Below are positions 32,701-51,656 of a stretch of DNA of 64,000 nt, one piece after another. The position numbers and the translations under genes were made by a program. The notes under the pieces were generated by a model. It was given only the letters and a program-made list of their open reading frames with translations, ran no database searches and was not told where the DNA came from. How positions within the stretch are numbered: position 1 is the first letter of the stretch; each line of letters begins with the position of its first letter. This stretch comes from a virus. The DNA is taken from IMG/VR virus record IMGVR_UViG_3300037311_000293. One strand, 5' to 3'.

Positions 32701-35700
32701 GCCTCGGAGATACCGAGGGTGTGTGCGATGGCGCGCGAGAACACCGGGTTGGGCATCGGCTCTACGAGCTCGATGTGCCCCCAATGGGTACCCGTGGGTC
32801 CGCCGGTGACGTAGGGGTCGAAGATACCACCGGGTTCGGGCTTGTCGTCCTTGCCTCGGATCGAGCGCGTCGGGCGCTTGATGACGCCACGACTAAGACC
32901 TCGGGTCTCTGCGTCGCTTCGGGGCATCAGACGGATCTCAGCCCCGTTCTTCTGAACGTCCAGACCAAGTCCCGTCAGCATGGCCTCGAACTTCTTGAAC
33001 ACGAACGGGATACGGGGCGCCGGGATGCGCTCACCGTTTGTCAGCGCACCCCAGACCTCTCGGGCCTGCGGCTGGTCGGACTTCAGAGTCTGCATCTCAC
33101 GCAGATTGTCCTTGAGCCCGGCTGCGAGAGCGGCGTAGACGCCAAGAGAGCCGATGCTCTGCGCACCGGTGTGGTCTCCGCCCTTGGGGACTTTGGTGTC
33201 GGTGTCGTAATGAATCTTTGGAGCGCCGTACTGCGTAACGATGGAGTCGTAGCCGCCACCACGGACATGCGTCTTCTTGTCGATCTGATGCTCGAGCTGG
33301 AAGGCGTAGTGCGGACCGGTCATCACCTCACCGAGCTTCCGACCGGTCTTCGGGTCGTACAGCGTCTCGGTGTCCTTGATGCCGTGCTTCTTGAGCTCGT
33401 CTTGGACCTTCTTGAGGTAGTCGACTCCACCCTGGAAGTTCTTCACCAGGTACGTCTTACCCGTCTTGTCCGCGATCTTGCCTGCCGCGGTCTCGAGAAG
33501 CTGACCCGGATTCATACGACCCGGGACGGATACGGGGTTGATGAGCATCTCGACGGGCTTGCCCTTGCCGTCTACGGGCATCTCCTTGTCGTCCAAGATC
33601 GAGGTCACAATACCCTTCGCGCTGTGCCGCGTAGAGATCTTCGACCCGATCTGAGCAGGCTCTACCGTGCGGACATGTACGACGACGTTCTTGCCCACAC
33701 GTTCCGCACGGATGACCTCACCCTCGTACTCGCTGTCCCAAATCATCGTGGCGTTGTTGAATCGGTTGCGGAGGCGCTTTCCGATCTTGTACTTCGCCGT
33801 GATGTCGGACGATCCTGGAGTCTGTGATTCGTTGAGCGCAAGAACGAGAGGATCGCCAGGACGAACGCGCGTACCAGGACGCACGATACCGTCGTCTCCG
33901 ATGTGCTTGAGCTTGTCGTTTCCGTAGACCGCTGGCTTAGCGATCAGAAACTCCTTCTTTCCGATACGGTGTGTGTCCGTCACAAGCATCGAAGGCTTGT
34001 ACAGATGTTCGGATGCCAGACGCTGAGCCGCGCTGGCCGAGATCACAATACCGTCTTCGTGGTTCGACCCATTGGCCAGGTAAGCCGTGCGCAGATTGGT
34101 CCCGAGGGCCAGTGTGCCGTCCTTGGTGAAGTTGTTGTCGGCGACGAGCTGCCCAGCGCGCACCTTCTGTCCGGGCTTCACCGTGGGGTGGGAGTGGAGC
34201 TCGCCCTTGTCGTGGTTCGTTGGATAGTGGTGGTAGAGCGGGACGCTGTGCGCCTTGCCATCTGCGTCTTGGATCGTGATGGCGTCCTCCGTGACGGACT
34301 TCACTACGCCGTCGACAGGGGCTTTGTGCGCCAGGAAGCCACCACCAATGAGTCCTTCGAACGTCTTCCCCGCCCCGGCCTCCACCTGAACCTTCGGGGG
34401 TTCCCGGCCCACGACACTGATGGCCTGGGCCATGTGACGCGCCGACATCGTAGAACGACCAGCGGAGTCGTTCTGCATGAAGGGAACCAAGTTCGTTTCG
34501 ATGGCAAAAACCTGAGACGCATTCGGCATCACGTAGTCCGCCTTGGTCCACGGGATGTCGTCTCGCATGTGCCCGCTGCCGTCGGACATACGCACTGCCT
34601 TACCAAGGGGCTGGGGCTTTCCTGCCTTCCACTTCACCTGATCGGGGAGGATCACATTGCTCACCGCAGCCGTCGCGGCGTCGACATCTTCGAACTTCCC
34701 GGTCTTCAGATTGTAGAGACGGACGTGCGGTTTGCGATCGCGAATCTCAACACCGAACGCAAGATGAGTGTTGACGCCGGCATTGGACTCCGGAGTGAAC
34801 ACGGGATCCAAGAAGCCGAGATGACTGGGATCGAGGGCGGTGTTCGACTTCGACAACGCATGCTGGTTCTGGATACCGCCAGGACCAGCGATGGTGACCA
34901 TGCTGTGATCCGCCAGCATTGCCAGCGGATTGGTTTGCTTGCCGTTCGAAGCCAACGATGTCGTGAAGGCGTGAAACAACGGCTTCTGCAAGAGGTCGGG
35001 CATGACGACGTCACGAAGCACCGATGCATCGCCGGACATCAGACGCTGCTGCACCTTTGGGCGCCCGAGTACCTGTTGAATGCGGCGTTGAATCTCCGGG
35101 GAAGCCTTCTCCAAGCGATCTGCAAAGTGATCCTTGGCCGTCCACAGCTCCTTGTATCGAAGACTGTCGATGGGGTCGGGCTCCGCACGCTTCGCCGCGA
35201 CGTCGAGCAGCTTCGTAGCGGCACGGAACAGAACATCACCGTTCACTTGCTCGGACTTCACCCCGACGTTGGCGTGCGCCACTGCGGGGTCCATCTTGGT
35301 CCCTTCGAAGATGGCACGGGTCTCGAGCAGCAGATTCGTCTTTGGCCCCGGAGGCTCCTTGCGCCAGGTCTCGTAGAGCGATCGAAGATCTTTGTCCAAG
35401 TTGGACTTCGCCTTGGACGCCTTGAAGGCATCCTCGCCCCACGACGCCTTCATCTTCTCGTCAGGCACACCCAGAGCGTGGAGCACGGAGTACAGAGGGA
35501 TCTTTCGGTTACCCACCTTCATGTGGAGGTAACCGCTCATGTCCATCTGCATGTCGAAGCTGCGCCCCTTGGCGAGCTGAAACTGGGCCTCGAACTCTCC
35601 GGCACGCTCGGTGGCCTTGACGTAAACACCCGGGCGAAGACGCCACTGGTTCGAGATGAACTTCTCTTGACCGCCAACGATGTAGCTGTACTGCCGGGTC

Positions 35701-35990
35701 AACTTGGGGATCTTGGCTAGCTGGGCCTTACGGCTAGTCAGCACCTTTCCCGAGCCGGTGTCTACGACCTCGACGACGCCGGTCAGGGAAGCAGCCCACG
35801 ACCGCCCTTCCAGCTTCGCTTTGAACTGGTCGTGGATGTCGTCGACACCCAAACGATCGTCGACCTGTAGGTCGCGTACGCGCACCTCGAGGCGTCCAGT
35901 GCGGTCCTTCACGGGGAAGGTCGACTCGATCTGCCCGATGAGCTGCTGCTTGAGCTCGTCGAACTGGCGATGGGGGTCCGATGTCAGCAC
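29757..35990 (-). CDS. rpoBC: Fused beta-beta' multisubunit RNA polymerase (single polypeptide)
   Basis: 2077 aa. Beta motifs: GFLDPVFTPES, LVPFMQNDSAGR, NHEDGIVIS, GSKISTRHSAKG, NPVSVPGRMNPGQ, LREMQTLKSD. Beta' motifs: GHIEL, PVLPPVFRP, KKQDYTARATI, KRDPVLH, GGDIDGD, RSPLKC..VCSKC, IAAQALGE. Confidence 0.95.
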   Translation of the reverse strand: MLTSDPHRQFDELKQQLIGQIESTFPVKDRTGRLEVRVRDLQVDDRLGVDDIHDQFKAKLEGRSWAASLTGVVEVVDTGSGKVLTSRKAQLAKIPKLTRQYSYIVGGQEKFISNQWRLRPGVYVKATERAGEFEAQFQLAKGRSFDMQMDMSGYLHMKVGNRKIPLYSVLHALGVPDEKMKASWGEDAFKASKAKSNLDKDLRSLYETWRKEPPGPKTNLLLETRAIFEGTKMDPAVAHANVGVKSEQVNGDVLFRAATKLLDVAAKRAEPDPIDSLRYKELWTAKDHFADRLEKASPEIQRRIQQVLGRPKVQQRLMSGDASVLRDVVMPDLLQKPLFHAFTTSLASNGKQTNPLAMLADHSMVTIAGPGGIQNQHALSKSNTALDPSHLGFLDPVFTPESNAGVNTHLAFGVEIRDRKPHVRLYNLKTGKFEDVDAATAAVSNVILPDQVKWKAGKPQPLGKAVRMSDGSGHMRDDIPWTKADYVMPNASQVFAIETNLVPFMQNDSAGRSTMSARHMAQAISVVGREPPKVQVEAGAGKTFEGLIGGGFLAHKAPVDGVVKSVTEDAITIQDADGKAHSVPLYHHYPTNHDKGELHSHPTVKPGQKVRAGQLVADNNFTKDGTLALGTNLRTAYLANGSNHEDGIVISASAAQRLASEHLYKPSMLVTDTHRIGKKEFLIAKPAVYGNDKLKHIGDDGIVRPGTRVRPGDPLVLALNESQTPGSSDITAKYKIGKRLRNRFNNATMIWDSEYEGEVIRAERVGKNVVVHVRTVEPAQIGSKISTRHSAKGIVTSILDDKEMPVDGKGKPVEMLINPVSVPGRMNPGQLLETAAGKIADKTGKTYLVKNFQGGVDYLKKVQDELKKHGIKDTETLYDPKTGRKLGEVMTGPHYAFQLEHQIDKKTHVRGGGYDSIVTQYGAPKIHYDTDTKVPKGGDHTGAQSIGSLGVYAALAAGLKDNLREMQTLKSDQPQAREVWGALTNGERIPAPRIPFVFKKFEAMLTGLGLDVQKNGAEIRLMPRSDAETRGLSRGVIKRPTRSIRGKDDKPEPGGIFDPYVTGGPTGTHWGHIELVEPMPNPVFSRAIAHTLGISEADIPAIVEGKKTLPGGLYGGKGIKAALAKVDLDKALKATLAEINDPKTKGATLNKLNFKYKTLLTLKEAKKTPAEAWTIQAVPVLPPVFRPQTTLPDGTIKNNPLNALYKRLGMVNESLAKGEGKVPYNNTLDTRAGLYQELQNLLGTTPKGKKALDLDMRGTKENPDKTLPGIIHMISGEKPKDGFFQDKMIAKKQDYTARATIVVDPNLSVDEMGVPKKIALELMRPMVAQRLLAARVRPDMAQRMISEKHPMAIKALEKEVETRPVLMKRDPVLHQYGLVAQRIRLTDDPAIKVSPLILPPIGGDIDGDTVALMVPLTREAVDEAHRILPSARTISEASGDVIFAPANEAALSLYRMSIPRGKRSGTFASKDEAEKAFRENRINLNDEIHVKNVGNTTLGRLRMAFIVPEKYRSDILTNLSKPLDRKYQEKILKDVAKTQPKHFVEVVDGMSRLGFQMAYESGHTVSLQDIEPLRRERDKIISETKKDVASLNSDQATDKWLAATRRIHDVYNKMLAAKPTNVSDMAPAPLGSGIKAKREQFQGLIMAPMLVEDHLGKPSRVPVTKSFAEGVDLGGYFLQAAGARRGVIQKTDSVRKPGYMSKLLVQSNIDQAISGDDCGTQQGMALSVADKDVVDRHLAQPVTLGGHTYPAGAVVTPDMLAKAKESRIDRFVVRSPLKCRMPQGVCSKCMGIHPNGAEYRSGENVGLIAAQALGERAAQIMLKQTHGGGIVSTAGQSVSEFEEVQRLFDAAKPGREDAALAPRAGKVVSVRELQQGGWAIVLEGKTTPIKTRQKPMPHIRPGVMVERGEKLTAGEANIHDLLKTKGLDAVQSHMVDRVGTIYGREGVLRRHVELAVRSATGIVRITDPGDHGSYIRGDTVQKSVIDEVNRTVLHGKKPIRYESMLVPTKENPLRRQTDWMARLQGERLGQNLMTAAQTGQRSSVAGPHPIPALAVGVTVGAGPDAKPWGTAAPLKRS

Positions 35991-35996
35991 AGCGGC

Positions 35997-36026
35997 AGTC
36001 TACTTCCCCCTCAAGAAAAGGGTCAA
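35997..36026 (-). promoter_or_regulatory. Sigma70-like promoter TTGACC-N18-TAGACT, leaderless RNAP mRNA predicted
   Basis: The -10 hexamer ends exactly 6 nt before GTG 35990; same geometry at 46233-46262. Confidence 0.6.
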
Positions 36027-36032
36027 CGCGCG

Positions 36033-36046
36033 CCTATCAGTAAGTG
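36033..36046 (+). promoter_or_regulatory. 14-bp motif CCTATCAGTAAGTG
   Basis: Perfect repeat at 46268-46281; both copies sit at divergent operon junctions. Confidence 0.65.
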
Positions 36047-36208
36047 ATGGCCTCTATGCCCGATCCAAAGCAACCGAGAAGCGAAATACCCGATTCCATC
36101 ACGGACTTCGAACGCTCTCTATCCGAGGCGCTGTACGCAAACCTCGACGAACAAGACGAACAGGAAGAGGACGATACCGAATGCTCTCCATCTTCGGATG
36201 GTCAATGA
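36047..36208 (+). CDS. Small acidic protein (53 aa, below the ORF-track cutoff)
   Basis: ATG immediately after the motif; MASMPDPKQPRSEIPDSITDFERSLSEALYANLDEQDEQEEDD... Confidence 0.45.
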   Translation: MASMPDPKQPRSEIPDSITDFERSLSEALYANLDEQDEQEEDDTECSPSSDGQ

Positions 36209-36285
36209 TCTCCGGGTTCATCCTCGGCGTGATCGACGCAATCAACACTAGCCGCGCATGGCGCTGGCTCAGAGGATGGCAATGA
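36181..36285 (+). CDS. Small membrane peptide (34 aa)
   Basis: MLSIFGWSMISGFILGVIDAINTSRAWRWLRGWQ; AGGA RBS; TGA overlaps the next ATG. Confidence 0.45.
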   Translation: MLSIFGWSMISGFILGVIDAINTSRAWRWLRGWQ

Positions 36286-36647
36286 AAACCAAGGCACACG
36301 TGGATCTTCATCCACACGACGAAGACGAGACATCCTTCGACGACATGACGCCGAACTGTCATGCGTGCGACACCGAGCCCGTGGGCGTCGTCACCGAGGT
36401 CTATCTCGTCGTCAAAGGGATGCTGTTCCCCAGCTCGGAATACGACGTCCCGGTGTTCATTCCGGATCCCGACGTGAGAATGACGGTGCTCACGATGCCG
36501 AATGGGCAACTGGGGATCGTCACCGACCAAAGCATCACGAAGTACATGCACGCAGAGTGTTTGGATCAGCTCGTGAACGAAGCGGGTTCAACGTTCTGGG
36601 AAGACGCGGAAGAAGAGGAAGAGGAAGAGGAAGAGGACGACGAATGA
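36282..36647 (+). CDS. Zinc-finger-like protein with acidic tail
   Basis: CHAC...HAEC ligands; poly-E tail; ATGA overlaps at both ends. Confidence 0.65.
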   Translation: MKTKAHVDLHPHDEDETSFDDMTPNCHACDTEPVGVVTEVYLVVKGMLFPSSEYDVPVFIPDPDVRMTVLTMPNGQLGIVTDQSITKYMHAECLDQLVNEAGSTFWEDAEEEEEEEEEDDE

Positions 36648-37771
36648 GCTACGGGTATCTACAGGCGAAGATCCTAGTGGGCCGTGAACTGAAGGCGCAA
36701 CACTCTCTGGCGGGCAAGACGGCGTCTGCGCTGAACGTGCCCCTCCTTCTGGGGCCGGTAGGGGGCGGTAAGACCGCCCTGGCTCGTGGGATGGCCGAAG
36801 AGCACGCAATGTTCTACGCCCCCATCAACAGCGGGGAGAACAGCGACCCCACGGATGTCGCGGGCGTTCCCGTGCCCAGCATGATCCGCTCCCTTCTCCG
36901 TGACGGTACGAGCTCCGAGAAGGCAGACGCCCGCGGCCAATACATGGAGTGGGTCCTCAATCGCTACGCCACCATGGCGTGTTCGGAGCCCGTGTTTCTG
37001 TTCTTCGACGACCTCGACAAGGCGCCGCCGAAGGTCCAAGGCGCTCTCCTCGGGATCACGGGGAACAGGATGTTCCGCGATCGCCCGCTGCATCCCGGTA
37101 CGCTGCTGATGGGTGCTGGGAACCGTATCGATGATGACGCGTACGCCAACGAGATCAGCGAGTCGTTGCGTACGCGCATGACCATCATCGAGATGGTTCC
37201 TGATGTGCGTTCCTTCTCGCTGTATGGCACACAGACCGGTGAGATCAACCCGGCGTTCTTGGGCTACCTGCAATGGAAACCCGAACACCTCCACAAGTGG
37301 CAAGACGGCGTGAACCGCTTCCCCACACCGCGTGGGTGGTGGGAGGCGTCGAAGCAAACCGAGCTGTTCCCCGACCCGTTCGAGGATGTCTTCGGTAACG
37401 GCGTCGCCGAGAACTGGAAGGGGATCGTAGCCCGTAAACTCGGCGACCCCGTGGCCAATGACTTCTGGGCGTGGTTCGAGATCATCTCGAAGGTCGACGT
37501 CCAAGGAATCTTGATCAACGGAACGCTCCCAGTACTCGCCGATCCAAAGAAAACGCGCATGACTCAGTTCGCCTGTGTGTATGCCGTGTCTCAGGTTCTC
37601 AACAAGGACGGCGTATCGAAGAAGCACACGGGACTTGCTGTCCTTGTCGACAGCCTTGAGGCCGACATGCGCGTGGCCTTTCTGGTCCAGCTCTCCGGCA
37701 AGCTCAGGGCGGACATCGCGAAGCTCTTCCCACACGTCGCAAGCACAGTGATGAAGGATCTGGTTGGATGA
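36644..37771 (+). CDS. MoxR-type AAA+ ATPase
   Basis: Start ATG 36644; Walker A GPVGGGKT, Walker B FLFFDDLDKA, GAGN, SLRTR, PTPRGW. Confidence 0.85.
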   Translation: MSYGYLQAKILVGRELKAQHSLAGKTASALNVPLLLGPVGGGKTALARGMAEEHAMFYAPINSGENSDPTDVAGVPVPSMIRSLLRDGTSSEKADARGQYMEWVLNRYATMACSEPVFLFFDDLDKAPPKVQGALLGITGNRMFRDRPLHPGTLLMGAGNRIDDDAYANEISESLRTRMTIIEMVPDVRSFSLYGTQTGEINPAFLGYLQWKPEHLHKWQDGVNRFPTPRGWWEASKQTELFPDPFEDVFGNGVAENWKGIVARKLGDPVANDFWAWFEIISKVDVQGILINGTLPVLADPKKTRMTQFACVYAVSQVLNKDGVSKKHTGLAVLVDSLEADMRVAFLVQLSGKLRADIAKLFPHVASTVMKDLVG

Positions 37772-38949
37772 TCGACGAAGCATCAGTTACCGACAGAGAA
37801 GCCTTGGATCTGGTACGAGAAGCCCTCCGCGAGCTGATGCTTCGGTTCCCGCTGGCGGGTCTTTCCTACATGGGAGAGAACATCGTCGTACGCGAAGAGT
37901 CATCGATCAAGACGATGGACACCGATGGTCGCTTTGTCCGTTACTCACCTGAGTGGGTTCGCTCTTGTACAGACCGCGGGCGTGTGTTCGATCTTCTCCA
38001 CGAGTGGCTTCACGTCTTCGGGAATCATCCGGCGCGCCTTGGCGGGCGCGATCCTTTCTTGTGGAACGTAGCGGTTGATATCGTGGTGGTACGTCAGGCA
38101 TCCGAGATCCTGACCACCGCCACAGACAACTGGCCCCCACCAGATGACGGAATCATCCCGCCAGCATGGGCCAAGGACATGGACGCCGAGACGATTTACG
38201 ACGTCTTGGCCAGCAACGCGAACAAGGTCCCGGCACCAAAGAGCGCAGAAGGCGTTCGTGGCGCCAATGACCTCAGACGAAGAGACCCCCAGGAGGCCGA
38301 GGCTTTTCGTGGGTCGTTTGCGAGTGAGCTCGCGCAAATCTGTGCTGTCCAGCAACAAGCCACAGGGCTCACACCAAAGGAGCTCTACGGCAGCGAGCTC
38401 TACAGCCGGCTGGATCAGATCCTGAAGGGCAATGTCCCGTGGTCGAAACTACTACGGGGCCAGCTCGTCAGCGAACTCGGTGCTGAGGAACACGGCTACG
38501 ATCCGCCGAATCGACGCTACTACCCCGATATCATCCTGCCGCAGGCCTTCGACACCACACAGCGTAAGTTGCTGATCGCTGTAGATGTTTCTGCCAGCGT
38601 CGGTCAGGATCTACTGGACGAGTTCATCGGCAACGTCGTACCCGCGGCAGCTCGTGCAGCAGAAACCTGGGTAGTGACGTTCGACGCCGTGGTCCGCGAG
38701 ACAGTAAAAACCCGCCATCCACGCCGTGTCCTTCGTGAGGTCCGCTTTCTCGCAGGATCCCATAACCACACCAGTGTTCGAGAAGTGTTCGCCTTGGTCG
38801 ATCAGATCAAACCTACGTCGACTGTCGTCCTGACAGATGGGCACGTGCTTCTTCCCGACGAGCCGTACCCCAAAACTCTATGGATCATCCCCAGGGGCGG
38901 AAAGAAGCAACCCTGGGGACGCAACTACATCATGGAGGCTTCTTGGTGA
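37768..38949 (+). CDS. Metallopeptidase-vWA fusion (DUF2201-like)
   Basis: TMDTDG and LLHEWLH (HExxH) N-terminal; MIDAS DVSAS and LTDG C-terminal. Confidence 0.85.
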   Translation: MIDEASVTDREALDLVREALRELMLRFPLAGLSYMGENIVVREESSIKTMDTDGRFVRYSPEWVRSCTDRGRVFDLLHEWLHVFGNHPARLGGRDPFLWNVAVDIVVVRQASEILTTATDNWPPPDDGIIPPAWAKDMDAETIYDVLASNANKVPAPKSAEGVRGANDLRRRDPQEAEAFRGSFASELAQICAVQQQATGLTPKELYGSELYSRLDQILKGNVPWSKLLRGQLVSELGAEEHGYDPPNRRYYPDIILPQAFDTTQRKLLIAVDVSASVGQDLLDEFIGNVVPAAARAAETWVVTFDAVVRETVKTRHPRRVLREVRFLAGSHNHTSVREVFALVDQIKPTSTVVLTDGHVLLPDEPYPKTLWIIPRGGKKQPWGRNYIMEASW

Positions 38950-40253
38950 GTGATCTTCTACAAGCCGCGGCGCGTCAGATCCTGGACGAGCGCCTGAGTC
39001 ACAGCCTCAACGACCACGACAGACACTGCCTGTTGTTTCTCTACGGCTACGAAATCGTAGAGCGCCTCCGCGAGGTCAAGGGGTACGGGTCCTTGTCGGC
39101 ATCGGCATACGATCTCATCAGTCTCGGACTGCTCCCACACAAGGCCCGCGCGGCAGGCATCAACGTCCGGGTTCCGTACACGCCGGATTCAGGTTCCGCC
39201 GCTGAGCGCGCGAAGAACCACCCGCTGTTCTTGGCCGACGCGCTGTACAACGCCGGAGATGCCGAAGGCGTCGAAGACGTGTTGCTGTGGCGTGAAGAAC
39301 TAAACAAGCAATGGGCTACGCCAGCAAGAAACAACTGGTGGCCGCCCCACGAGTACATGGCGTACGTACTGACCAACCGCCCAAGTACGCTGGTGCACCG
39401 ATACACCTACGAGCCCCATACATACCTGCACTGGTACACCACAAAGGACATCGTAGATCTGATCCAACGCACCAGCGCGGGCCCCTTTGGGCTACGCACT
39501 CTTCAGGCCGTGGTCAACAACAACCCCAGCCTCGAGCCAGAAGTTCACACCGCGCTTAGGAAGCGTTGCCGCGACGCCGCCTACTCCCTTCTGACCGCCG
39601 GGCGCCCGGACTACAGCACTCTGATCGAGAGCTTACGTCTCGTGGACCCCGAAGACAGACCAGAGCTCCTGGAAGATGCAGGTCCACGGGTGGCGCTGTG
39701 GTTGACACTGGATTCCGCCACCACAGAGCAGTTCATCGCCGGACTCTCAGCGCTGGCCAAGAACAGCTCCCAGGACATCCGGCGGCAGGTGTTGTCCGAG
39801 CTCACGCGGGTACCTACCGTAGAAGAACTTCGTGCAGTGCGCTCCAACGGCCTGCTCAGGGTGATCTACGACATGCCATACACCTTCATCGAGCGCCTCG
39901 ATGAGAAGGCCGTCGACCACGTACACGCGTTGAGCTTCAAAATCGGTGCCTCCGATTTCGAGCTCATGCGGGGTGCTCTGCTGCGACGTGCAGATCGCGT
40001 CGAAGTAGCAAGCCCACCGGTTCGCCCAGGAGGCAACGACATCAACATCTTTGGCGGACGTTGGGTCGGTGACTCCATGATCGCCTCGCGTAGACGCGCA
40101 CCAGAGATGCGTCAGAAACTGATCGATACCTGCGGGTCGCGAGATATCGCATTCCTGGTACTGACCAAGAGAACACCAAACATCGACGCACTCCTCAAGA
40201 CGCACCCAACAGTGGATCGCATCGAAGGGGCAAGACTGCCTTTCGAGACCTAG
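38946..40253 (+). CDS. Hypothetical helical protein
   Basis: GTG start overlapping the upstream TGA; 435 aa; ends at a terminator. Confidence 0.65.
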   Translation: MSDLLQAAARQILDERLSHSLNDHDRHCLLFLYGYEIVERLREVKGYGSLSASAYDLISLGLLPHKARAAGINVRVPYTPDSGSAAERAKNHPLFLADALYNAGDAEGVEDVLLWREELNKQWATPARNNWWPPHEYMAYVLTNRPSTLVHRYTYEPHTYLHWYTTKDIVDLIQRTSAGPFGLRTLQAVVNNNPSLEPEVHTALRKRCRDAAYSLLTAGRPDYSTLIESLRLVDPEDRPELLEDAGPRVALWLTLDSATTEQFIAGLSALAKNSSQDIRRQVLSELTRVPTVEELRAVRSNGLLRVIYDMPYTFIERLDEKAVDHVHALSFKIGASDFELMRGALLRRADRVEVASPPVRPGGNDINIFGGRWVGDSMIASRRRAPEMRQKLIDTCGSRDIAFLVLTKRTPNIDALLKTHPTVDRIEGARLPFET

Positions 40254-40285
40254 AAGAAAGCCCCCGAAAGGGGGCTGCCTTCTTC
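40253..40285. terminator. Bidirectional terminator
   Basis: AGCCCCC-GAAA-GGGGGCT GNRA hairpin between convergent stops. Confidence 0.8.
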
Positions 40286-42185
40286 AGCTTTGCCCCGCCC
40301 GCCGGAGAGGTAGCTGCTCCGGCAGCGGTCGCATATCCACTGCACCTTGCTGGCCTTGTTGAGGCGGCGGCTGCGCTCCTGGCCCCGTTGCCTGTGGCAT
40401 CTCGGGAGGCACCATCTGTTGCTGCACCATGCCGGCCATTTCGGGGCTGGCGTCACGGAGCTGAGCAAAAGCGATCTCTTGTTCGTCAGGCGGAAGAGTT
40501 TTGATCTTCTGCGCATACGCCGCGGCAAGGGCGTCGAGAGGCACGCCGGCAGGCTGAGACAGCGATTGTTGCGATTCTGCAAAGGGATCGTTCTTCGGCT
40601 GCTGCTCCCGTACCTGCGCCGTAGCAATCGCTGCCTGGGCCTTGGCCTGGTACTTCGCCGCAACGAGTTGGGCCTCACCCATGATCTGCGCGTTCTGCAA
40701 CTGCTGCCCGCGAAGTGTCTCGGCCTTCAGCTTCGACTCCGCCGCCATGAGCTCAAGTTCGTCCTCGACCTTCAAGTCGGCGTAGCTCAGCAACGTGGCG
40801 TCAGAGATCTTGTTCATGCTGTTGAGCTGCGCCATGAACGCCTGGCGTTGTAGATCATCAGCCATCCGGAACGGCTTGAAGCGGCCCTCGGGTACCGGAA
40901 GGTTCAGGTAGGCGCCCAGACGCTTCATTACCCAGTCGAGCAGCCTGTGATGGGCGTGCACGTTGCTGAGGAAGAAGTTCTCAAGCATGCGCATCGAAAC
41001 CGACGAGCCCGCGTAGGTGCCGCGACCGAACACGAGGTCCACGGGGAAGCCCATACCAGCGACCATGACCTCGAGGGCCTGTTGGATCTCCGGCATCAGC
41101 AGAAGGCTGCGGCCGTTCTCACCGATGGTTTGGTGGCCCAGCGGGAACGGAAGGATGCCGTAGTACGCGGGATCTGCGCGTTGACGCGCGAGCTCTCGGC
41201 GGATGTGGTCGCGCCAGTTCGACAGATCAACAGTCGTGAAGGGGTCGGCGCCGGCAGTGGCGGGCTGCGGGAACAGGAAGATCTGAGGCACCAAGTGAGT
41301 CAGAAGGACTGCTTCTTGCGCCTTGCGCATGACCTGGACGTAGAACGCTTCCTTCAGCACAGGCATCAGAAGCGGGATGCCCCATCCGCGCGACATCGTA
41401 GACAGGCTCGGACGTCGAAGATGGAAGACCTCGGAACGATCGAAGACGAGACTGCGCTTCGTACGAACGGCCTCCAGGAAAATCTCGGGCGTCGTCGCTA
41501 CGAGATCTTTGCGCCCCATCATGACTTGCGAACGGAAGTCCGGAGACAGGTCGAGGCCGTAATCCATACGGCCAGTGGCTTCGTTGTAGAAGATGTGGAC
41601 GTTCTCCGGGTTCCATCGGATCAGATTGATCTCGGAGTACTTGGGGTAGTAGTCGTCTCGGCTTTCCGCCCAATGGGCCTGTCCGCACTTCGTGCATTCC
41701 AGCCAGAAACGGTGATTCGTGTAGCGCCACGACGGGCGGCTCTGCAACGCGTCGTGGACCTCGCCGCAGTTCGAGCACTTCAGCTTCTTCCGGAACGGGA
41801 AGCTGACAGACACGAAGGCGTTGCCGTACACGAAGTAGTCGAGATTGATCTCGAACTGTTGAACGCGATAGTTCAGCACCCCGTTCATCAGGGTGTCCCA
41901 CTTCTTGACGACCCCGTTGTCCTTGTGCTGGAGCACCAAGTCGGTGACCGGATACTCCGCAGCCCGAGTCACCACGCTGTTGATGATCCCATGCGTCAGG
42001 TAATAGAACCGACAGAACCCGAACAGCGCCTTGATCGAGGGCGGCGTGTACGTGCTGGCCTGGTCGAAGAACGGATTGGAGAAGGGCTGGTACTTGCGCC
42101 CCAAGATCTGCCCGCGGTCGGCATTGCCGCCCAGCGCAGAACCCCGAGCTCCACCGAAGGCACTACCGCCTCCAAAGAACGTCAT
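40284..42185 (-). CDS. Portal protein
   Basis: 633 aa; LDYFVYGNAFV, RWNPENVHI, VFHLRR...GWGIPLL portal signatures; Q-rich C-terminus. Confidence 0.85.
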   Translation of the reverse strand: MTFFGGGSAFGGARGSALGGNADRGQILGRKYQPFSNPFFDQASTYTPPSIKALFGFCRFYYLTHGIINSVVTRAAEYPVTDLVLQHKDNGVVKKWDTLMNGVLNYRVQQFEINLDYFVYGNAFVSVSFPFRKKLKCSNCGEVHDALQSRPSWRYTNHRFWLECTKCGQAHWAESRDDYYPKYSEINLIRWNPENVHIFYNEATGRMDYGLDLSPDFRSQVMMGRKDLVATTPEIFLEAVRTKRSLVFDRSEVFHLRRPSLSTMSRGWGIPLLMPVLKEAFYVQVMRKAQEAVLLTHLVPQIFLFPQPATAGADPFTTVDLSNWRDHIRRELARQRADPAYYGILPFPLGHQTIGENGRSLLLMPEIQQALEVMVAGMGFPVDLVFGRGTYAGSSVSMRMLENFFLSNVHAHHRLLDWVMKRLGAYLNLPVPEGRFKPFRMADDLQRQAFMAQLNSMNKISDATLLSYADLKVEDELELMAAESKLKAETLRGQQLQNAQIMGEAQLVAAKYQAKAQAAIATAQVREQQPKNDPFAESQQSLSQPAGVPLDALAAAYAQKIKTLPPDEQEIAFAQLRDASPEMAGMVQQQMVPPEMPQATGPGAQPPPQQGQQGAVDMRPLPEQLPLRRAGQS

Positions 42186-43084
42186 ACCGAACCTCCGGGA
42201 GCCTTCGGCTTCCGCCGAAGCGAGATGCCTGACGCGCTCTCCAGCGCACCACCGGCGAGTATCTGAGGGGCGAAGGGTAGACCAGCCGTGGCGACACCGC
42301 CTGCGATGTTTCCGCCGAGGCGACGCAGCTTCTGCCCCACCGTGCGACCGCCCTCGGCGCTTTCGTCGCCTCGAAGAACCTCCGGCGCCGCGAAGGCTAC
42401 AGGCACACCCACTGCCATCATAGCGTTTGCGTTGCTGCCGCCGACGACCTCGTCCTTGAGCGCCTTCGCCGTGGCGCCTGGTTTCTTGATCAAGCCCTTG
42501 ACCACACCAGGGATGCTGGTGATCCCCGCTGCATCCGCCGCATCACCGCGCTGCCCCCACTGTTGGAGCTCTTTCTTACTGTCGGCGAGTTCGCGCTTGA
42601 GACCCTCCGTCGACTTGCCCATCGACTTTGCGTGAGCTGCTTCGTCGGCAAAGCGCTTCTCCAGCAGATCGATGCGGCGACCGGCTTCTTCGCTGCTGCG
42701 CATGCCGATGGCCCCGGGCTTCCCGGTATGAGAACCCGTGAACCCGTGGAGCTGGCGTTGCCCGAAGCGCTTGATTCCCTGTCCGGCACGCCTGAGCGTA
42801 CCCACCACCGCGCCCCCAGCCGACGCCGTAGGGTCGAGTAGGCGGGTATCGCGGTATCCGCGGCCCACAGCAGCTACGCCGCCGGCAAGGGCGCCGCCTC
42901 GAAGGGCACCGCGTACGCCGGCCGACCAGCCAGACTCGCCTTCTTGGCGCGTCGCCACACCATGTGCAGCACCAGCGGCGGCGCCGAGAACCGCGGTGCG
43001 GCCCACGCGATCGGTGAGGTAACGCGCGAGGTGTGCTGGGCCGGCTTCTTTGACGATCTCAAGGAAGACGTCTGTAGGATTCAT
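42182..43084 (-). CDS. Glycine-zipper-rich virion protein
   Basis: 300 aa; VKEAG; four small-residue hydrophobic segments. Confidence 0.6.
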   Translation of the reverse strand: MNPTDVFLEIVKEAGPAHLARYLTDRVGRTAVLGAAAGAAHGVATRQEGESGWSAGVRGALRGGALAGGVAAVGRGYRDTRLLDPTASAGGAVVGTLRRAGQGIKRFGQRQLHGFTGSHTGKPGAIGMRSSEEAGRRIDLLEKRFADEAAHAKSMGKSTEGLKRELADSKKELQQWGQRGDAADAAGITSIPGVVKGLIKKPGATAKALKDEVVGGSNANAMMAVGVPVAFAAPEVLRGDESAEGGRTVGQKLRRLGGNIAGGVATAGLPFAPQILAGGALESASGISLRRKPKAPGGSV

Positions 43085-44019
43085 CGTTTACCGCCGATCA
43101 TCCTGAGCTGCTGGAGTAGCTGGGACTGCACGGTGTCGGCGTAGTCCCATTCGACCAGCAACCGGTATACCGCACTCCCTACCCCGCTGTCAGGAAGACC
43201 TTCGACGGCCTTTTCGAGAGGCAGAGCTCGTCGCTTCTCGAACAACTCGAGGCATTGCGTCTTGAGCTCCTCGAACTCGTACGGTTCTTTGATCAACTCA
43301 CGGCTGCTGCACGAAATGCAGCGTACATCGTTGTCGTCACGATGGATGGCACCGCAGTTCTTGCAGCGCAGCTTTCGTTCCTCGAGTTCACGCTGCGCGA
43401 AATCGAGAGGAGACGGCACCACGGGGATGCCCTCGTGCTTGAACGCCGCAGCGATGTACTTGTCGACTTCGATGCCTGTCGGCCGCTTCTTGTCGAGGGC
43501 CTTCATGATCTGATACCCGACCACGAGATGACCGAGCTCGGGCTCTTCGAGGAAGACGAAGTTCGGGGTCTCTCCTGCCAGACCGCGACAGACCCAGTGG
43601 AAGACCTCCCACTGCCGCCATGGTGACGGGGACTCCAGTACCACGCGTCCGGCGCAGATCTTGTTCCACACCCGATTCGACACGGCGAGACCATCGCGCT
43701 CCATGGTGAGCTTGAGAGTCTCTACCTCCCACTCTGTGAACTCGGTGCCGTAGCGCTCAAGCAGGAGAAGGAGAAGAGCAATGGGATGTGCATCGGCATG
43801 ACGCCAGATGTCCTTGAGCGTCGGCGCTGAGGTGTGTAGATCTTTCCGCAGCGCCGACGTCTTCTCCCCGCCAAAGGCCTCTAGTACGTCATCGACGATA
43901 CCGCCGAGAGTGGGAGGTGTGTATTCCGGGGGAGATTCTCCTCTCTCCTCCGGGAATGACGATCCGGCCCCACTAGGGGGCCAGACACGTACATGATTCG
44001 GATCGAAGAGGATGGACAT
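43081..44019 (-). CDS. Hypothetical protein with zinc ribbon
   Basis: 312 aa; CKNC...CISC; EKTSAL. Confidence 0.65.
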   Translation of the reverse strand: MSILFDPNHVRVWPPSGAGSSFPEERGESPPEYTPPTLGGIVDDVLEAFGGEKTSALRKDLHTSAPTLKDIWRHADAHPIALLLLLLERYGTEFTEWEVETLKLTMERDGLAVSNRVWNKICAGRVVLESPSPWRQWEVFHWVCRGLAGETPNFVFLEEPELGHLVVGYQIMKALDKKRPTGIEVDKYIAAAFKHEGIPVVPSPLDFAQRELEERKLRCKNCGAIHRDDNDVRCISCSSRELIKEPYEFEELKTQCLELFEKRRALPLEKAVEGLPDSGVGSAVYRLLVEWDYADTVQSQLLQQLRMIGGKR

Positions 44020-44022
44020 GGA

Positions 44023-44709
44023 TCAGCCGTTGGGATCGGCGATGTAGACGACGGCGAAGTCCCGGATTCCGTCCGGCGCGGCAGCCGACGTGTACTTGCG
44101 GCCAGAGAACGTGCCGGTCGTGACGACCGCGCCCACGGCGACCTCGCGAAGAGGAGTCGCCACACCCGCGAGAGCACGAATCGGACGGAACAGCACCATG
44201 AGGGCGCCGAAGCCGATGTCGAAGGTCCCGAGAGCGCTGACCTGGGGCGGAATGACGACTTCCGTGATCTCGTCGAGACCGAGATTCTCGGTGGATTGAA
44301 TCGTGTCGCCACCATCGGCGTCGGCCGGGGTGAACGTGAGGGTCACGTCCTCACCGTAGGCCTTGCCCTTGATGATGATGGGATCCGTCGTGTAGGCGCC
44401 GACCGACGCCGAACGCGTGACGGTGATGCTGCGCGCGCCCGTGGCGATCGCGGTCTGCAAGAAGTCCCCCGCCGACGCACGAAGGATCTGTTCCGACGTC
44501 GAACCGGCACGACCGTCGAGGAAGTAGTCGACGTCCGCGACCGGCGGGTTGGTCCAGGTGTCGACGCGCACGAGCCCGTTGTTCTCGAGAGTCTCGAACG
44601 CTTCGTCGACGTCGTTTCGGAGGTCTTCGACCTCACCCGCGGCGCCGCGCTTGCCCTGCACGAGATGGGGCCGACGCGGGCCCTTCGAACCGAAGTATTG
44701 ACTCGACAT
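44023..44709 (-). CDS. Hypothetical beta-rich structural protein
   Basis: 228 aa; RBS AGGAGG; strong codon bias. Confidence 0.65.
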   Translation of the reverse strand: MSSQYFGSKGPRRPHLVQGKRGAAGEVEDLRNDVDEAFETLENNGLVRVDTWTNPPVADVDYFLDGRAGSTSEQILRASAGDFLQTAIATGARSITVTRSASVGAYTTDPIIIKGKAYGEDVTLTFTPADADGGDTIQSTENLGLDEITEVVIPPQVSALGTFDIGFGALMVLFRPIRALAGVATPLREVAVGAVVTTGTFSGRKYTSAAAPDGIRDFAVVYIADPNG

Positions 44710-44726
44710 GTTCTCTTCCTCCTAGA

Positions 44727-46226
44727 TCAGGTTGCCGCAGCAAGGCGGGACAGTACCACCTTTTGCGGATCCGGCATCGACTTGAAGATTCCGACGGGGT
44801 CCTTTGCGAAGCTGCTGGCGAAGCCATCGCCGAACAACTCATCGAGTTTCGCGGTGCGCTCTGAGAGCGACTTGAGCTGCATGCCGCTGACGTAGTCGTT
44901 CCCCGCGGACCACGAGTAGGTCTCGCACTCGTCGGCCGCATGCTTCGTTCCGTAGACCGCGGCGTATGGGTCGAGGAACCCGACACCCGGCCGGTTGTAG
45001 CTACCGGACGCACCGGTCTCCACATCGGCTCCCATGATCATGTTGACCATGACCATGGGATCGATCTCCGCCTTCTTCTCGAGCAAGAGCTCGTACACCT
45101 CTTCGTGTCCGGTGCCCATGAAAGCCGTGATACGAGCGTGAAGCTGGGCTTCGACGTTCTCCCCGTACTCGGTGCCGGCGTAGTTCATGACGGCGCCAGA
45201 GAGCTTGACTCCGAGCTCATCGGCGCGCTGAGCCACGGACACCGCGTATGCGCGGCGTTCTTCGAGCGGGAACGAGTGCAGATGATCGTCGAAGTACGCC
45301 GCGGCCTGCTTGACCTGTGCGGTGGTGTCGATGGGATAGCGCTCGAGGTGGGGAAGTGCGTAGTGAACCGCGCTTGCTTGCTTCTTCTTGACGTGACCAT
45401 CGAACAGAGTGAGATCACCGCAGTGAGCCCACTCCGCAGACGCCAGGAGTGCAGAAGTCTTCTGGGGGAGGTCGAGGCTCTTACTGGGCGAAGAGCGGAC
45501 AGGATGATTGCGCAGAGTACCCTGCGGCATGATCTCGGTACCCGTGAGGTCTGCCTTCTTCGCCATCACGGGGTCGATCTGGTCCCTCTTCTCGAGCTGC
45601 TTGTCCAGCTTCTTGTGCGTCGAGTCGAGCTTGGAGAACAGATCGAACAACCCGAAAATGTGGCCGGACTCCGGACCATCCCCGCGTTGCATCGCGTTGT
45701 CTTGTTCCTTCGTGAGCTCGACTGTGCGACCAGAGGCCGTCTTGGTTCCTGAAGCCTGCGCGGCGCGGAACTCGTCCATGCGCTCATGGGCCTTCTCGCT
45801 TCCGCTTCTTGCGCGATGCGCCATGTCCATGGCACCGAAGCCGACGGTGAGAGCCTTTCCGATCATCGCCTTCTTGATCAGATCTGTCGGAGGCTGAAGG
45901 TCATACCACGAACACCCCACCACAAGGTTCGACGCAACCTTTGCCTGGACGTCATCGGGCAGTAGGTGCCCACACTCCAGGAAGTAGAGGATGGAGATCG
46001 TGGTGTGCTCGGGGTCGTGCATCGCGTACTTGCGAAGCACGTTCCCATGGTTCGTGGCCACCAGCCCGAACAGGCGGTCGGGAAGCTCCTCGAGCTCGTC
46101 GGTCGTCAACAAACGCGACGCCGCCAGCTTGGTCGGTAGCTTCTGCTTGAGGGCAGCCAGCTTGTTGCGGAGGACGAGACCACGAGGGTCGTCGTAGATG
46201 TCGAGCACGATCCCGGCGATTCGCAT
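44727..46226 (-). CDS. Virion protein with two DUF6582-like (F/Y-A-L-P...R-Y-P) modules
   Basis: Start ATG 46226; ELEELPDRLFGL...RKYAMHD and HYALPHLERYPIDTTAQVKQAAAYF; many K-x-A/S motifs. Confidence 0.6.
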   Translation of the reverse strand: MRIAGIVLDIYDDPRGLVLRNKLAALKQKLPTKLAASRLLTTDELEELPDRLFGLVATNHGNVLRKYAMHDPEHTTISILYFLECGHLLPDDVQAKVASNLVVGCSWYDLQPPTDLIKKAMIGKALTVGFGAMDMAHRARSGSEKAHERMDEFRAAQASGTKTASGRTVELTKEQDNAMQRGDGPESGHIFGLFDLFSKLDSTHKKLDKQLEKRDQIDPVMAKKADLTGTEIMPQGTLRNHPVRSSPSKSLDLPQKTSALLASAEWAHCGDLTLFDGHVKKKQASAVHYALPHLERYPIDTTAQVKQAAAYFDDHLHSFPLEERRAYAVSVAQRADELGVKLSGAVMNYAGTEYGENVEAQLHARITAFMGTGHEEVYELLLEKKAEIDPMVMVNMIMGADVETGASGSYNRPGVGFLDPYAAVYGTKHAADECETYSWSAGNDYVSGMQLKSLSERTAKLDELFGDGFASSFAKDPVGIFKSMPDPQKVVLSRLAAAT

Positions 46227-46232
46227 GCACGA

Positions 46233-46262
46233 ATCGTACTGCGTGCAAGGGAAGTGGGTCAA
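46233..46262 (-). promoter_or_regulatory. Sigma70-like promoter TTGACC-N18-TACGAT, leaderless mRNA predicted
   Basis: The -10 hexamer ends exactly 6 nt before ATG 46226. Confidence 0.6.
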
Positions 46263-46267
46263 ACCGT

Positions 46268-46281
46268 CCTATCAGTAAGTG
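46268..46281 (+). promoter_or_regulatory. 14-bp motif CCTATCAGTAAGTG
   Basis: Identical to 36033-36046; abuts the GGAGG RBS of the first gene of the replication operon. Confidence 0.65.
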
Positions 46282-46289
46282 GAGGTGCA

Positions 46290-46931
46290 ATGCATCGTCA
46301 GACGGGTCCTCAACAACCAAGCCCGATCCCGGGCAAGAAGAAGAACTGCAACGAATGGGCGGTATTCGAAGCCGCAGGATCTTCACCCACCGCGGCTTTG
46401 TGCAACGGCGGGTGGTACGACGGCAGCTTCTACCACGAATGTCCGGTACGGGCTGAGTGCGTAGTTGCCACCAGGCAGAAGGCCGGCAAGACCCATCTAC
46501 CCGTTACGCACCAGGCGAGGCCGCTCCTCGGGGCCCCGAGATCGTTCACAGTAGCGTCAACCCCAAACCTAGGAGCGCAACCGCCGGTCCAGAAATCGTG
46601 GGCCGATCAGTTCAGAGCGCGACCGCCGGTACCGACGACCGTGCCTCAAGTGCCCATGCGGGCTCCCGAAGGACTACCGACACCAGCAACCGTTCCGGCA
46701 CCGCTCCCCTATCCCGTAGCACCGCCGAAGGAATGGCCGGCCGCGATGACGACGCCGTACGCAGGGCCCGTGGCCCCGCCGAGCGTTGGTATCACGCCGA
46801 CGTTTCTTCCAGGTGAGGAGGAAGACGTGTTCTCACGTCTCCTCAAGAACATCGCACAAGGCGCTGTCGGCTCAACAGGCTGGCACATCTTCGACTACGC
46901 CCGTACCGTAGACCTGTTCGGGCGGCGCTGA
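46290..46931 (+). CDS. Hypothetical protein (Cys-rich N-terminus, Pro-rich linker)
   Basis: ATG 46290 with GGAGG; 4 Cys in the N-terminal domain. Confidence 0.65.
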   Translation: MHRQTGPQQPSPIPGKKKNCNEWAVFEAAGSSPTAALCNGGWYDGSFYHECPVRAECVVATRQKAGKTHLPVTHQARPLLGAPRSFTVASTPNLGAQPPVQKSWADQFRARPPVPTTVPQVPMRAPEGLPTPATVPAPLPYPVAPPKEWPAAMTTPYAGPVAPPSVGITPTFLPGEEEDVFSRLLKNIAQGAVGSTGWHIFDYARTVDLFGRR

Positions 46932-46934
46932 TCA

Positions 46935-46963
46935 GATGCGGGCGCACAACGCCCGCATCCTTT
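46935..46963 (+). terminator. Perfect 10-bp hairpin just before the helicase start
   Basis: GATGCGGGCG-CACAA-CGCCCGCATC followed by CTTT. Confidence 0.55.
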
Positions 46964-46966
46964 GCT

Positions 46967-48367
46967 ATGCAGTTCATCAAACGCCTACCGGGTGTGGGAT
47001 ACCTCGACAACTGGCTCTGGTTGCCGAAGACCCACGTGAGCCAAACGCAGATCGAGTCGGCCTTCACCTTTGAAGGCCCCAAGATCGTAGAGGCATGGCA
47101 TGCCGAGGAGCACCATTTCAGGGTGCCCAGGAACTACCTGGCACAAGAGACGCTTGAGAAGATGCCGTTCCAAGTATTCGATCTGCGATCTCGGCGGTTC
47201 CCTCGAGTACATCTGAAGAGCTCGGTCGTACTCGACTACAAGGAGCCGCACAAGGATTACCAGAGACGGGGCAGTGCTGCACTACTTGAGACGTTCGATG
47301 GGATTCTGTGCTTGCGCTGCGGGGCGGGCAAAACCGTCGTAGGTCTACATTCTGCGGCACAGCTCAACGTTCCTGTGATCATAACAGTCACAGACGAAGG
47401 CCTTGCAGAGCAGTGGGTGGAGGAGATCGTCGCCCATCTTGGGGTGCCTGAGTCCGACATCGGCATGATCGGTGGCAAGAGAGCAAAGGGAAAGATGAAC
47501 TGGGAGCACGCCATCGCGGTGGCCCACGTTCAAACACTCGCCCGGCGACAAGAAGAGGGCCTGCTGCCGCCAGAGATGCTGAACCACTTCGGTCTTCTGA
47601 TCTGCGACGAGGCTCACGTCATGGGTGCTCCGTACTTCAACACGGCGATACCGCCTTTCCGCGGCCGGAGGTGGGGGCTCTCCGCCACTCCAGTGCGTGA
47701 AGACGGATACGATCCTCTTCTTCGCTACACCCTCGGGCCTGTTGTCTACACCTACTTGACGCCTGACCTGATCCCGAAGGTGTACTTCCGCCAACTACCT
47801 ACCCGACTGGATCTCGACAACCCGAAGGTTGTAGCTGAAACGCACGACGCCACCGGCCAGTTCCACTACGGCATGACCTACGGATATCTGTCACGCGAAC
47901 GTAAAGATCGTACCGAGCGTATCGTGAAGGACATCCAAGACGGCCTAGACAGTGGACGCCAGATCCTCGTACTCACGCACAGCAAAGACATGACCGACGT
48001 CCTCGGTTCGTATTTCCCCGGAGCCGGAGTGGTGAACGGTGAGGTGAAAGGACAGGAGCGCAGACGGCGTATCAGAGAGTGCAACCCAGTCATCGCCATC
48101 ATGCAGCTCGGCAAGCAAGCGCTGAACAAGCCGAGTCTCGATACGCTCTACGTCCTCGAGCCCTTCTCCAAGGCCGGCATGCTCCAGCAAACCATGGGCC
48201 GCGTGCTCCGTCTGTTCGCCGGCAAGAAGAACCCACTCGTCATCTTCTTCGAAGACATCGGCATCCGACCGATGTCACGGCTCTGCGGCAAGCTACGGAT
48301 GAAGCTCAATCGATGGCCCGCAGCAAAGGGCGGGCAGATCCCACACACCACGGTAAAACCATCATGA
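46967..48367 (+). CDS. Superfamily 2 (DExH) helicase
   Basis: CGAGKT, ICDEAH, GLSATP, QTMGRVLR. Confidence 0.9.
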   Translation: MQFIKRLPGVGYLDNWLWLPKTHVSQTQIESAFTFEGPKIVEAWHAEEHHFRVPRNYLAQETLEKMPFQVFDLRSRRFPRVHLKSSVVLDYKEPHKDYQRRGSAALLETFDGILCLRCGAGKTVVGLHSAAQLNVPVIITVTDEGLAEQWVEEIVAHLGVPESDIGMIGGKRAKGKMNWEHAIAVAHVQTLARRQEEGLLPPEMLNHFGLLICDEAHVMGAPYFNTAIPPFRGRRWGLSATPVREDGYDPLLRYTLGPVVYTYLTPDLIPKVYFRQLPTRLDLDNPKVVAETHDATGQFHYGMTYGYLSRERKDRTERIVKDIQDGLDSGRQILVLTHSKDMTDVLGSYFPGAGVVNGEVKGQERRRRIRECNPVIAIMQLGKQALNKPSLDTLYVLEPFSKAGMLQQTMGRVLRLFAGKKNPLVIFFEDIGIRPMSRLCGKLRMKLNRWPAAKGGQIPHTTVKPS

Positions 48368-48792
48368 TCAAGATCGAAACACACCGAACGTTCTATACCC
48401 TCGACCAAGGAGCACCGGCGGAAGAACGCAGGATCTGGGAAGAACAACTCGCTCTGGTGCATTGCGGGACCAAAGAACCGCTCGTCGGCATCCTCGAGTA
48501 CTCCGAGACCGACGAATACGACTGGGCCCTCTACGGTGCCCTGACCTACCTCATCCATGTCGAGTTCGCCGTCGACCCCAACAACAACGCCCTTCGTCTT
48601 CACGTACCGCTTCGAACGCTGATCCCCTTTGGCGTCATGTCCCCGGCAAACATCAAGTTCCCAACACCCCCTACGGCGGTCATGTGGATCAAGGACCAGC
48701 CCGAGACCGTGAAGAAGTGGTTCTGCGACACCTACCTCGCAGTGTTCGATCCCCCGCGCATCATCACATCCGCCGTTCTTCCGCCCCGCTGA
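48364..48792 (+). CDS. Hypothetical protein
   Basis: ATG 48364 overlapping the helicase end; 142 aa. Confidence 0.6.
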   Translation: MIKIETHRTFYTLDQGAPAEERRIWEEQLALVHCGTKEPLVGILEYSETDEYDWALYGALTYLIHVEFAVDPNNNALRLHVPLRTLIPFGVMSPANIKFPTPPTAVMWIKDQPETVKKWFCDTYLAVFDPPRIITSAVLPPR

Positions 48793-48795
48793 ATC

Positions 48796-51558: not shown

Positions 51559-51635
51559 TGGTGGTCATCGGCGGCCCCCACTACCCCTAGTGGTAGCCGC
51601 CACGCCCCGTTGCGCCTACCAGGCGCGTGGGCGTA
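51553..51635. other. Tandem/alternative hairpins upstream of the helicase gene
   Basis: GGGTAGTGG/CCACTACCC; CCACTA-CCCC-TAGTGG inside GCGGC/GCCGC; ACGCCC...GCGCCT-ACC-AGGCGC...GGGCGT. Confidence 0.5.
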
Positions 51636-51656
51636 CAACAATCGACCCGAGGTACG

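Follow-up and report, generated by a model that had tools for sequence, protein, structure and literature searches.

The box in the two divergent junctions

The DNA analyzed here, a window of 64,000 nucleotides from an uncultured phage, is the reverse strand of bases 17517-81516 of the 177,453-bp IMG/VR virus record IMGVR_UViG_3300037311_000293, which is rated complete. The element under study is a short box that recurs in the region's two short divergent junctions. At both of them, as a preliminary description made from the sequence had reported, a perfect copy of the 14-mer CCTATCAGTAAGTG lies on the plus strand (36033-36046 and 46268-46281), and a minus-strand TTGACC (GGTCAA at 36021-36026 and 46257-46262) precedes it by 6 and 5 nt, respectively. 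Junction 1 separates the gene for an RNA polymerase (RNAP), which neighbor analysis places first in a leftward operon continuing into baseplate-hub and terminase genes, from a rightward operon that includes a small acidic protein, an AAA ATPase, and a DUF2201/VWA protein. Leftward from junction 2 lie the gene for a 499-aa protein and a head module with the portal, and rightward lies a replication module. The features of the two junctions are listed below; SD denotes a Shine-Dalgarno sequence, and the start sites at both junctions are predicted from sequence on both strands.

29757-35990, minus strand: single-chain beta-beta' RNAP of 2077 aa (Pfam Rpb2_6 and Rpb1_1/2/3/5)
35988-36026, minus strand: predicted leftward promoter of the RNAP operon, with TTGACC (36026-36021), 18 nt, TAGACT (36002-35997), 6 nt, and GTG 35990, no SD; its blocks are conserved in relatives
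36016-36019, plus strand: A-rich upstream element of box copy 1 according to a 107-site logo, at -17 to -14 from the box and inside the spacer of the leftward promoter
36033-36046, plus strand: box copy 1 at the RNAP junction, with the core CCTATCAG at 36033-36040, TG at 36045-36046, and a predicted start near 36047; a syntenic box is present in 16 relatives
36047-40253, plus strand: operon behind copy 1, encoding the small acidic protein, a 121-aa protein, the AAA ATPase, the DUF2201/VWA protein, and a 435-aa protein
46224-46262, minus strand: predicted leftward promoter of the head-module operon, with TTGACC (46262-46257), 18 nt, TACGAT (46238-46233), 6 nt, and ATG 46226, no SD; conserved in 5 relatives
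46268-46281, plus strand: box copy 2 at the head/replication junction, with the core at 46268-46275, TG at 46280-46281, GGAGG at 46282-46286, and ATG 46290; a syntenic box is present in 5 relatives
46290-63371, plus strand: operon behind copy 2, encoding a 213-aa protein, an SF2 helicase, UDG, a DnaB-like helicase, a primase, a family A DNA polymerase, a RecA-like protein, and a nuclease

The preliminary description had noted that TATCAG ends 6 nt before an ATG at 36047. This spacing is correct, but the ATG that relatives conserve as the start is the next in-frame one, at 36056. From there (36056-36208), the first gene after the RNAP-junction box encodes a highly acidic 50-aa protein (MPDP...) that is conserved in relatives and matched no family. 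Being made first from a box-driven operon, this protein may act as an inhibitor directed at the host or may mimic DNA.

Searching the window for the 14-mer with up to 3 mismatches gave 4 matches against 1.66 expected, a number reached in 8 of 100 shuffles, and the window holds 62 exact direct 14-mer pairs. Taken by itself, the 14-mer repeat is within the chance range and not significant; its significance comes from the placement of its core and from the conservation of that core across the family. The 14-mer does mark a real box, but the true unit is CCTATmAG plus TG at +12/+13 (positions are numbered from the first C of the core). The exact 14-mer was ruled out as the functional unit by its inner TAAG, which is variable, and by the number of other exact 14-mer pairs in the window.

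Placement, anatomy and conservation of the box

For the genome-wide analysis, the whole genome was turned to the orientation of the window, and rough gene calls gave 223 genes with 6.5% of the DNA intergenic. CCTAT[AC]AG occurs 17 times. Fifteen of these copies are intergenic (P about 2e-16 given the intergenic share of the DNA), and the remaining 2 lie at genes whose starts were placed too far upstream by the caller. All copies are directed into the gene that follows, with its start codon mostly 13-80 nt downstream. Among 1680 8-mers of the same composition, the core ranks first by intergenic count (10 versus a mean of 0.34). Using a weight matrix, we detected 27 sites at 10 bits or more, the copies at 20250 and 22433 included, versus 4 for the reversed matrix. 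The motif is absent from coding DNA on both strands, and its orientation is absolute. The scan of the full genome and its relatives, which the preliminary description had proposed as a check, thus shows that the box recurs genome-wide in front of transcription units for non-structural genes, always pointing into the unit. In this genome there are about 25 such units, among them those of the replication module and the AAA/VWA operon, of many small genes, of a sigma factor, and of a helix-turn-helix (HTH) protein.

All three plus-strand gene islands of the window carry a box. In the first island it lies ~440 nt inside (20250), after a weakly scored open reading frame (ORF). Besides the two junction copies, the window contains the following features:

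20250-20263, plus strand: box copy 4, a ACTATCAG variant with AAAA at 20234-20237 (weight-matrix score 20.3), heading a 71-aa ORF with an SD (20275-20490) that overlaps the gyrB start
22433-22446, plus strand: box copy 3, a CCTATTAG variant with AAAAA at 22414-22418 (weight-matrix score 27.5), conserved after the gyrB stop and heading a 206-aa gene (22520-23140)
22447-22519, plus strand: structured leader behind copy 3, with a 5' hairpin, a terminator-like hairpin with T8 (22477-22504), and then an SD (fold -21.9 kcal/mol, z -2.5)

Copy 3 had been described as a third, 11/14 match (CCTATTAGTAGATG, 22433-22446), and it is real as well. A box is kept after gyrB in 9 of 11 relatives, with a clear GAAAA about 14 nt upstream, and this conservation rules out a chance match in the interval from the gyrB stop to its terminator as the explanation of the 22433 copy. 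In more distant relatives, the place of 22447-22519 is taken by another structured leader, which is conserved as well. No Rfam family was matched in the window.

The anatomy of the box was derived from a logo built on 107 sites pooled from six genomes. It shows an A-rich patch at -18 to -15, with A at -18/-17 in 51%/48% of the sites, A/T at -5 to -3, C at -2, and the core CCTATmAG, where m is A or C and the box with its two preceding bases reads cgCCTAT(C/A)AG. The core is followed by N4, TG at +12/+13, a purine at +14 (93%), and an A/G-rich stretch to +17. The last core base is G, and T variants are absent from the intergenic copies, as shown by the logo and a variant count. Because this last base is never T, the box is not a housekeeping -10 element; it does not fit TAnnnT, which requires T at the last hexamer position, whereas the leftward promoters do. 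The purine stretch is tied to the box rather than to the start codon, since several copies have a separate true SD further on, 20-60 nt beyond the stretch at the sites at genome' 93374, 94984, and 176754. In 34 of the 107 copies the box lies within 60 nt after a hairpin plus T-run, and with about a third of the copies following terminators, transcription must restart there. At the divergent junctions there is no upstream plus-strand transcript, so that a rightward promoter is required, and the box is the sole conserved rightward element in them.

A search for relatives by the RNAP N-terminus alone found none. A scan of viral contigs for the box plus GGAGG gave two hits and led to G001, a 160.7-kb contig with the same gene order and an RNAP that is 64% identical, and an alignment-based search with two sequences gave 19 loci. 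In G001, 26 of 27 core copies are intergenic and co-oriented, and the longer pattern CCTATVAG-N5-G has 23 matches versus 0 for the reversed control. The complete genomes G006-G009 have 14-17 copies each versus 0-2 for the reversed control, so that five relatives with RNAPs 54-76% identical carry 14-27 copies each. In G010, whose RNAP and sigma are 29% and 26% identical, respectively, there is no motif excess (6 versus 7 in the control).

The syntenic sites show the same conservation at closer range. In all relatives whose RNAP is at least 53% identical, the RNAP junction reads, from the polymerase gene outward, GTG start, 6 variable bases, a TAGACT-like block, 17-18 variable bases, cgTTGACCC, a gap, and the box. 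The blocks GGGTCAACG, AGTCTA, and CAC are conserved there while the spacers vary; the gap from the leftward -35 to the box is about 4, 16, or 30 nt, and the box is (C/G)CTATCA(G/A), followed by TGGAGG in most. The head junction retains ATG-N6/7-TAnnnT-N18-TTGACC-N3-6-box in six genomes. At these two junctions and after gyrB, the flanks diverge while the box stays in place. Judged by these comparisons of sequence, the box is real, clade-wide, and phage-specific, and it travels with the phage sigma factor and the single-chain RNAP.

G001 also contains two boxes back to back around the symmetric TTTTTAGCTAAAAA (G001:C1:34161-34228), which looks like a bidirectional pair with shared A-rich upstream elements. 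Terminators throughout the genome of the phage share a tail, a GC-rich hairpin followed by TCTTTTG(C), for example at 23199, 62822, and 63398 on the plus strand and at 23159 and 162 on the minus strand of the window; the tail is also found in G001 and G009, often directly ahead of a box. The 8-mer TCTTTTGC is intergenic in 13 of 14 occurrences; only the poly-G ends of the record give a stronger intergenic enrichment. At both ends the record carries AGAAGAGG ahead of a long run of G, and at the low-coordinate end in the orientation used here CCCCTCTTCT comes next; these ends may be an assembly artifact or a terminal structure. Finally, a box copy on the minus strand, 15,043 bases before the start of the window, is followed by 80 nt without a start codon, and CCTCC occurs in the following stretch.

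Candidate readers of the box and of the leftward promoters

The phage encodes a 271-aa sigma70-family protein (L007:1327-2142). Its best NCBIfam match is FliA/WhiG (E 2e-9), which is below the cut-off, and a profile of six orthologues searched against the PDB matched solved SigB, RpoD, and SigA over regions 2-4 (E 1e-13 to 1e-12); FliA membership was therefore dropped in favor of a SigB/RpoD-like protein. The sigma gene stands behind a box in this phage, in G001, and in G006, and in G007 and G008 a box lies ~300 nt upstream of it, with room for a small gene between. Orthologues are present in every relative tested. Among 50,697 phage records, the only homologues were gp10 of Salmonella phage Arash and a single gene in each of the Vibrio phages D69, D148, and D181, which are the same phages that carry the nearest RNAPs. 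In Arash, gp10 and the subunits of the RNAP are abundant in the virion (PMC10585845). A six-frame search of the genome for a single-subunit RNAP (PF00940) found none, although its control could not respond, and PF00940 was in none of 14 large ORFs scanned. A 243-aa protein with two HTH domains (HTH_32, HTH_38, and a weak sigma region 4), encoded on the minus strand behind its own box (G000:C1:161914-161183 region; L008:1444-2175), is a candidate second transcription factor.

A consensus scan of 35000-47500 returned TTGACC-18-TAGACT and TTGACC-18-TACGAT, the two leftward promoters, as the sole sigma70-like matches. The arrangement TTGACC-N18-TAnnnT-N6/7-start without an SD implies a leaderless mRNA, the start site being predicted. 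Genome-wide, 14 genes, all without an SD, have TAnnnT 5-8 nt before ATG or GTG, the distance being 6-7 nt in 13 cases; examples in the window are 29757-35990, 44727-46226, and 62847-63371. The existence of this gene class implies that leaderless translation, GUG included, works in the host. A similar arrangement is found at five box copies, 36047 among them, which have an SD-less ATG exactly at +14 with the frame open for at least the 46 nt examined. This repeats the 6-nt geometry of the leaderless leftward genes and hints at a start near +14. Pfam matched almost nothing among the large proteins behind leaderless promoters, so that the "late/structural" status of these genes rests on the window's own modules.

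Together with its placement and conservation, the company the box keeps suggests that the 14-mer probably forms the core of a promoter that is specific to the phage and is read by its sigma on the single-chain RNAP. TATmAG would work as a -10-like element, recognized by the sigma70-family protein bound to the beta-beta' chain. Transcription would start about 6-7 nt after TATmAG, near 36047 and 46282, and most messages would therefore begin at or just before the SD, and a few would be leaderless. As in Arash, the virion probably contains the RNAP, and this would make the box promoters early or middle. Because the leftward promoters follow the universal housekeeping design, the host holoenzyme is their simplest reader, and it probably starts the RNAP/baseplate/terminase and head operons from TTGACC-N18-TAnnnT as leaderless messages. 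Leftward promoters read by the host in this way would resemble the late phase of phage N4.

Several observations weigh against a promoter read by the phage sigma and RNAP. The upstream A-rich element is weak, with about 50% occupancy of the 107 sites. The purine stretch doubles as a Shine-Dalgarno sequence in most copies, and part of the conservation could therefore be translational. A terminator-like hairpin sits between copy 3 and its 206-aa gene; it may be the gyrB terminator placed past the next promoter, or an attenuator. Virion carriage is known solely from Arash, a relative whose RNAP is ~30% identical, a protein of the sigma70 family could equally well bind the host core, and the gene calls are crude.

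If the sigma does bind the host core, the box promoter would be read by the phage sigma on host RNAP, and the phage RNAP would read, for example, the TTGACC-type leaderless promoters. Sigma appropriation has precedents in T4 gp55 and SPO1 gp28. Regions 2-4 of the sigma are of the ordinary kind, the protein is similar to sigma factors of cells, and the RNAP gene itself lies behind a TTGACC-type promoter and not behind a box. However, in the phage collection this sigma is confined to phages that also hold this RNAP, and both proteins are packed in the Arash virion (PMC10585845). TTGACC-N18-TAnnnT, moreover, is the universal housekeeping consensus and most simply explained by the host enzyme, and we consider the host-core arrangement unlikely.

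The box could also act at the level of RNA or translation, either as a start-associated sequence such as the SAS of cluster K mycobacteriophages or as a processing site that frees the message before the SD. This would fit the fixed distance from the box to the GGAGG-like sequence in the clade and the start codon, which mostly lies 13-20 nt after the box. Yet several copies keep the purine stretch in addition to a separate true SD 20-60 nt on, the SD stands well apart from the box in Arash, many copies follow terminators, and one copy precedes 80 nt without a start codon. Since the divergent junctions, in addition, have neither an upstream same-strand transcript nor space for another promoter, such a signal appears quite improbable. 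We give even less credence to a binding site for a phage regulator, e.g., the 243-aa double-HTH protein, acting on the leftward promoters from about -47. The box does lie just upstream of the leftward -35 at both junctions, the place of class I/II activators, and the HTH gene is behind a box, but the box lacks symmetry and without exception faces its downstream gene, and its distance to the leftward -35 ranges from 4 to about 30 nt at the RNAP junction of relatives. The alternative offered in the preliminary description, a site from which an activator or repressor would control the leftward promoters, likewise does not fit the about 20 other copies that have no leftward promoter nearby. A similarly slight chance is left to an unusual -10 element used by the host holoenzyme alone. 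TATAAG and TATCAG match TATAAT at five and four of six positions, but the final position is G in all copies, T variants being unused, and T at -7 is one of the two bases flipped out by housekeeping sigma factors (PMC7598289). In addition, the motif excess is restricted to the clade with this sigma and RNAP, and normal TAnnnT boxes are used elsewhere in the same genome.

A phage-specific box promoter facing a host-type promoter would have consequences for the two junctions. In this phage, the opposed promoters have predicted starts 56-57 bp apart and interlock: the spacer of the rightward one contains the leftward -35, and that of the leftward one contains the rightward A-patch. From this geometry, occupancy by one polymerase should exclude the other at both junctions. 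A polymerase footprint extends from about -55 to +20, so that over promoters interdigitated in this way two polymerases could not sit together. The tight spacing is conserved at the 46.2-kb head junction (3-6 nt, six genomes) and not at the RNAP junction. A mutually exclusive early/late switch, as the preliminary description had envisaged, is possible from the geometry alone. The full scheme, in which a virion-delivered single-chain RNAP with its sigma reads the G-ending -10-like box and competition with the host polymerase over the 60-bp region sets the early-to-late switch, is tentative, and we regard it as rather doubtful in its entirety.

Comparison with known promoter systems

Metagenomes (PMC7481178) and a few isolates have revealed phages whose RNAP is deep-branching and of the bacterial type. 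Our literature search found no paper on the motif or on promoters of this phage clade, and no published account of how the deep-branching phage RNAP locates its genes. Taken together, the clade-wide box, its partner sigma, and the equivalent box in the cultured Salmonella phage Arash supply this polymerase class with a promoter that is concrete and testable. A first transcription map follows as well, with box-driven non-structural units on one side and leaderless, host-type structural operons on the other. Furthermore, a -10-like element ending in G would shed light on the reading of its last base by sigma region 2.

The closest parallels among well-studied promoters are partial. Like the T4 late promoters (TATAAATA, gp55), the box is an 8-bp extended -10-type main determinant with what appears to be a weak or absent -35 and, as proposed here, a phage reader of the sigma family. 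T4 gp55 is a minimal sigma that works on the host core with gp33 and the sliding clamp, whereas the sigma described here has regions 2-4 and the phage has its own RNAP, and the boxes head non-structural rather than late genes. The Sigma28/FliA-type consensus, TAAA-N15-GCCGATAA, is bipartite in the same way, with an A-rich element about 15 nt before a long -10-like box beginning GC/CC; the box sequence differs, however, the sigma is nearer to groups 1 and 2 (SigB, RpoD), and the upstream element is weak. With regard to the junctions, lambda PR/PRM also consists of divergent promoters, and the cI mRNA from PRM begins at the start codon. Both systems have back-to-back promoters in a short control region and one (here predicted) leaderless message, but the junctions studied here combine two promoter classes, presumably with different holoenzymes, and neither an operator nor a repressor is apparent.

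Bioinformatic motifs that are centered near -10 and precede early operons have turned out to be promoters of the virion RNAP in jumbo phages that bring their own RNAPs (PMC7598289). The box resembles them as a short, conserved, phage-specific, and comparatively AT-rich motif near -10 that was found in the same manner (PMC7598289). Its sequence is unrelated to theirs, the start sites given here are predicted only, and the enzymes differ: jumbo-phage RNAPs are split into 4-5 polypeptides and lack a sigma factor (PMC7824862), whereas here a single beta-beta' chain is accompanied by a sigma70-family partner. The presence of these two proteins places the phage outside the class with split, sigma-less virion RNAPs.

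The nearest counterparts come from the phages that share the sigma. In Arash, GGTATAAG occurs 31 times, 30 of them on one strand; the four copies that we inspected are located 28-41 nt upstream of starts, and a further copy immediately precedes gp9-gp10. In Vibrio phage D69, GTTATAAG occurs 19 times versus 5 for the control (counts only). These boxes differ in the two bases before TAT, which are GG or GT instead of CC, in an SD that stands apart from the box, and in an RNAP of two chains with about 30% identity. They have in common with the box described here the TATAAG core and the same pair of RNAP and sigma, and the Arash box is likewise strand-specific and is also found ahead of the sigma operon.

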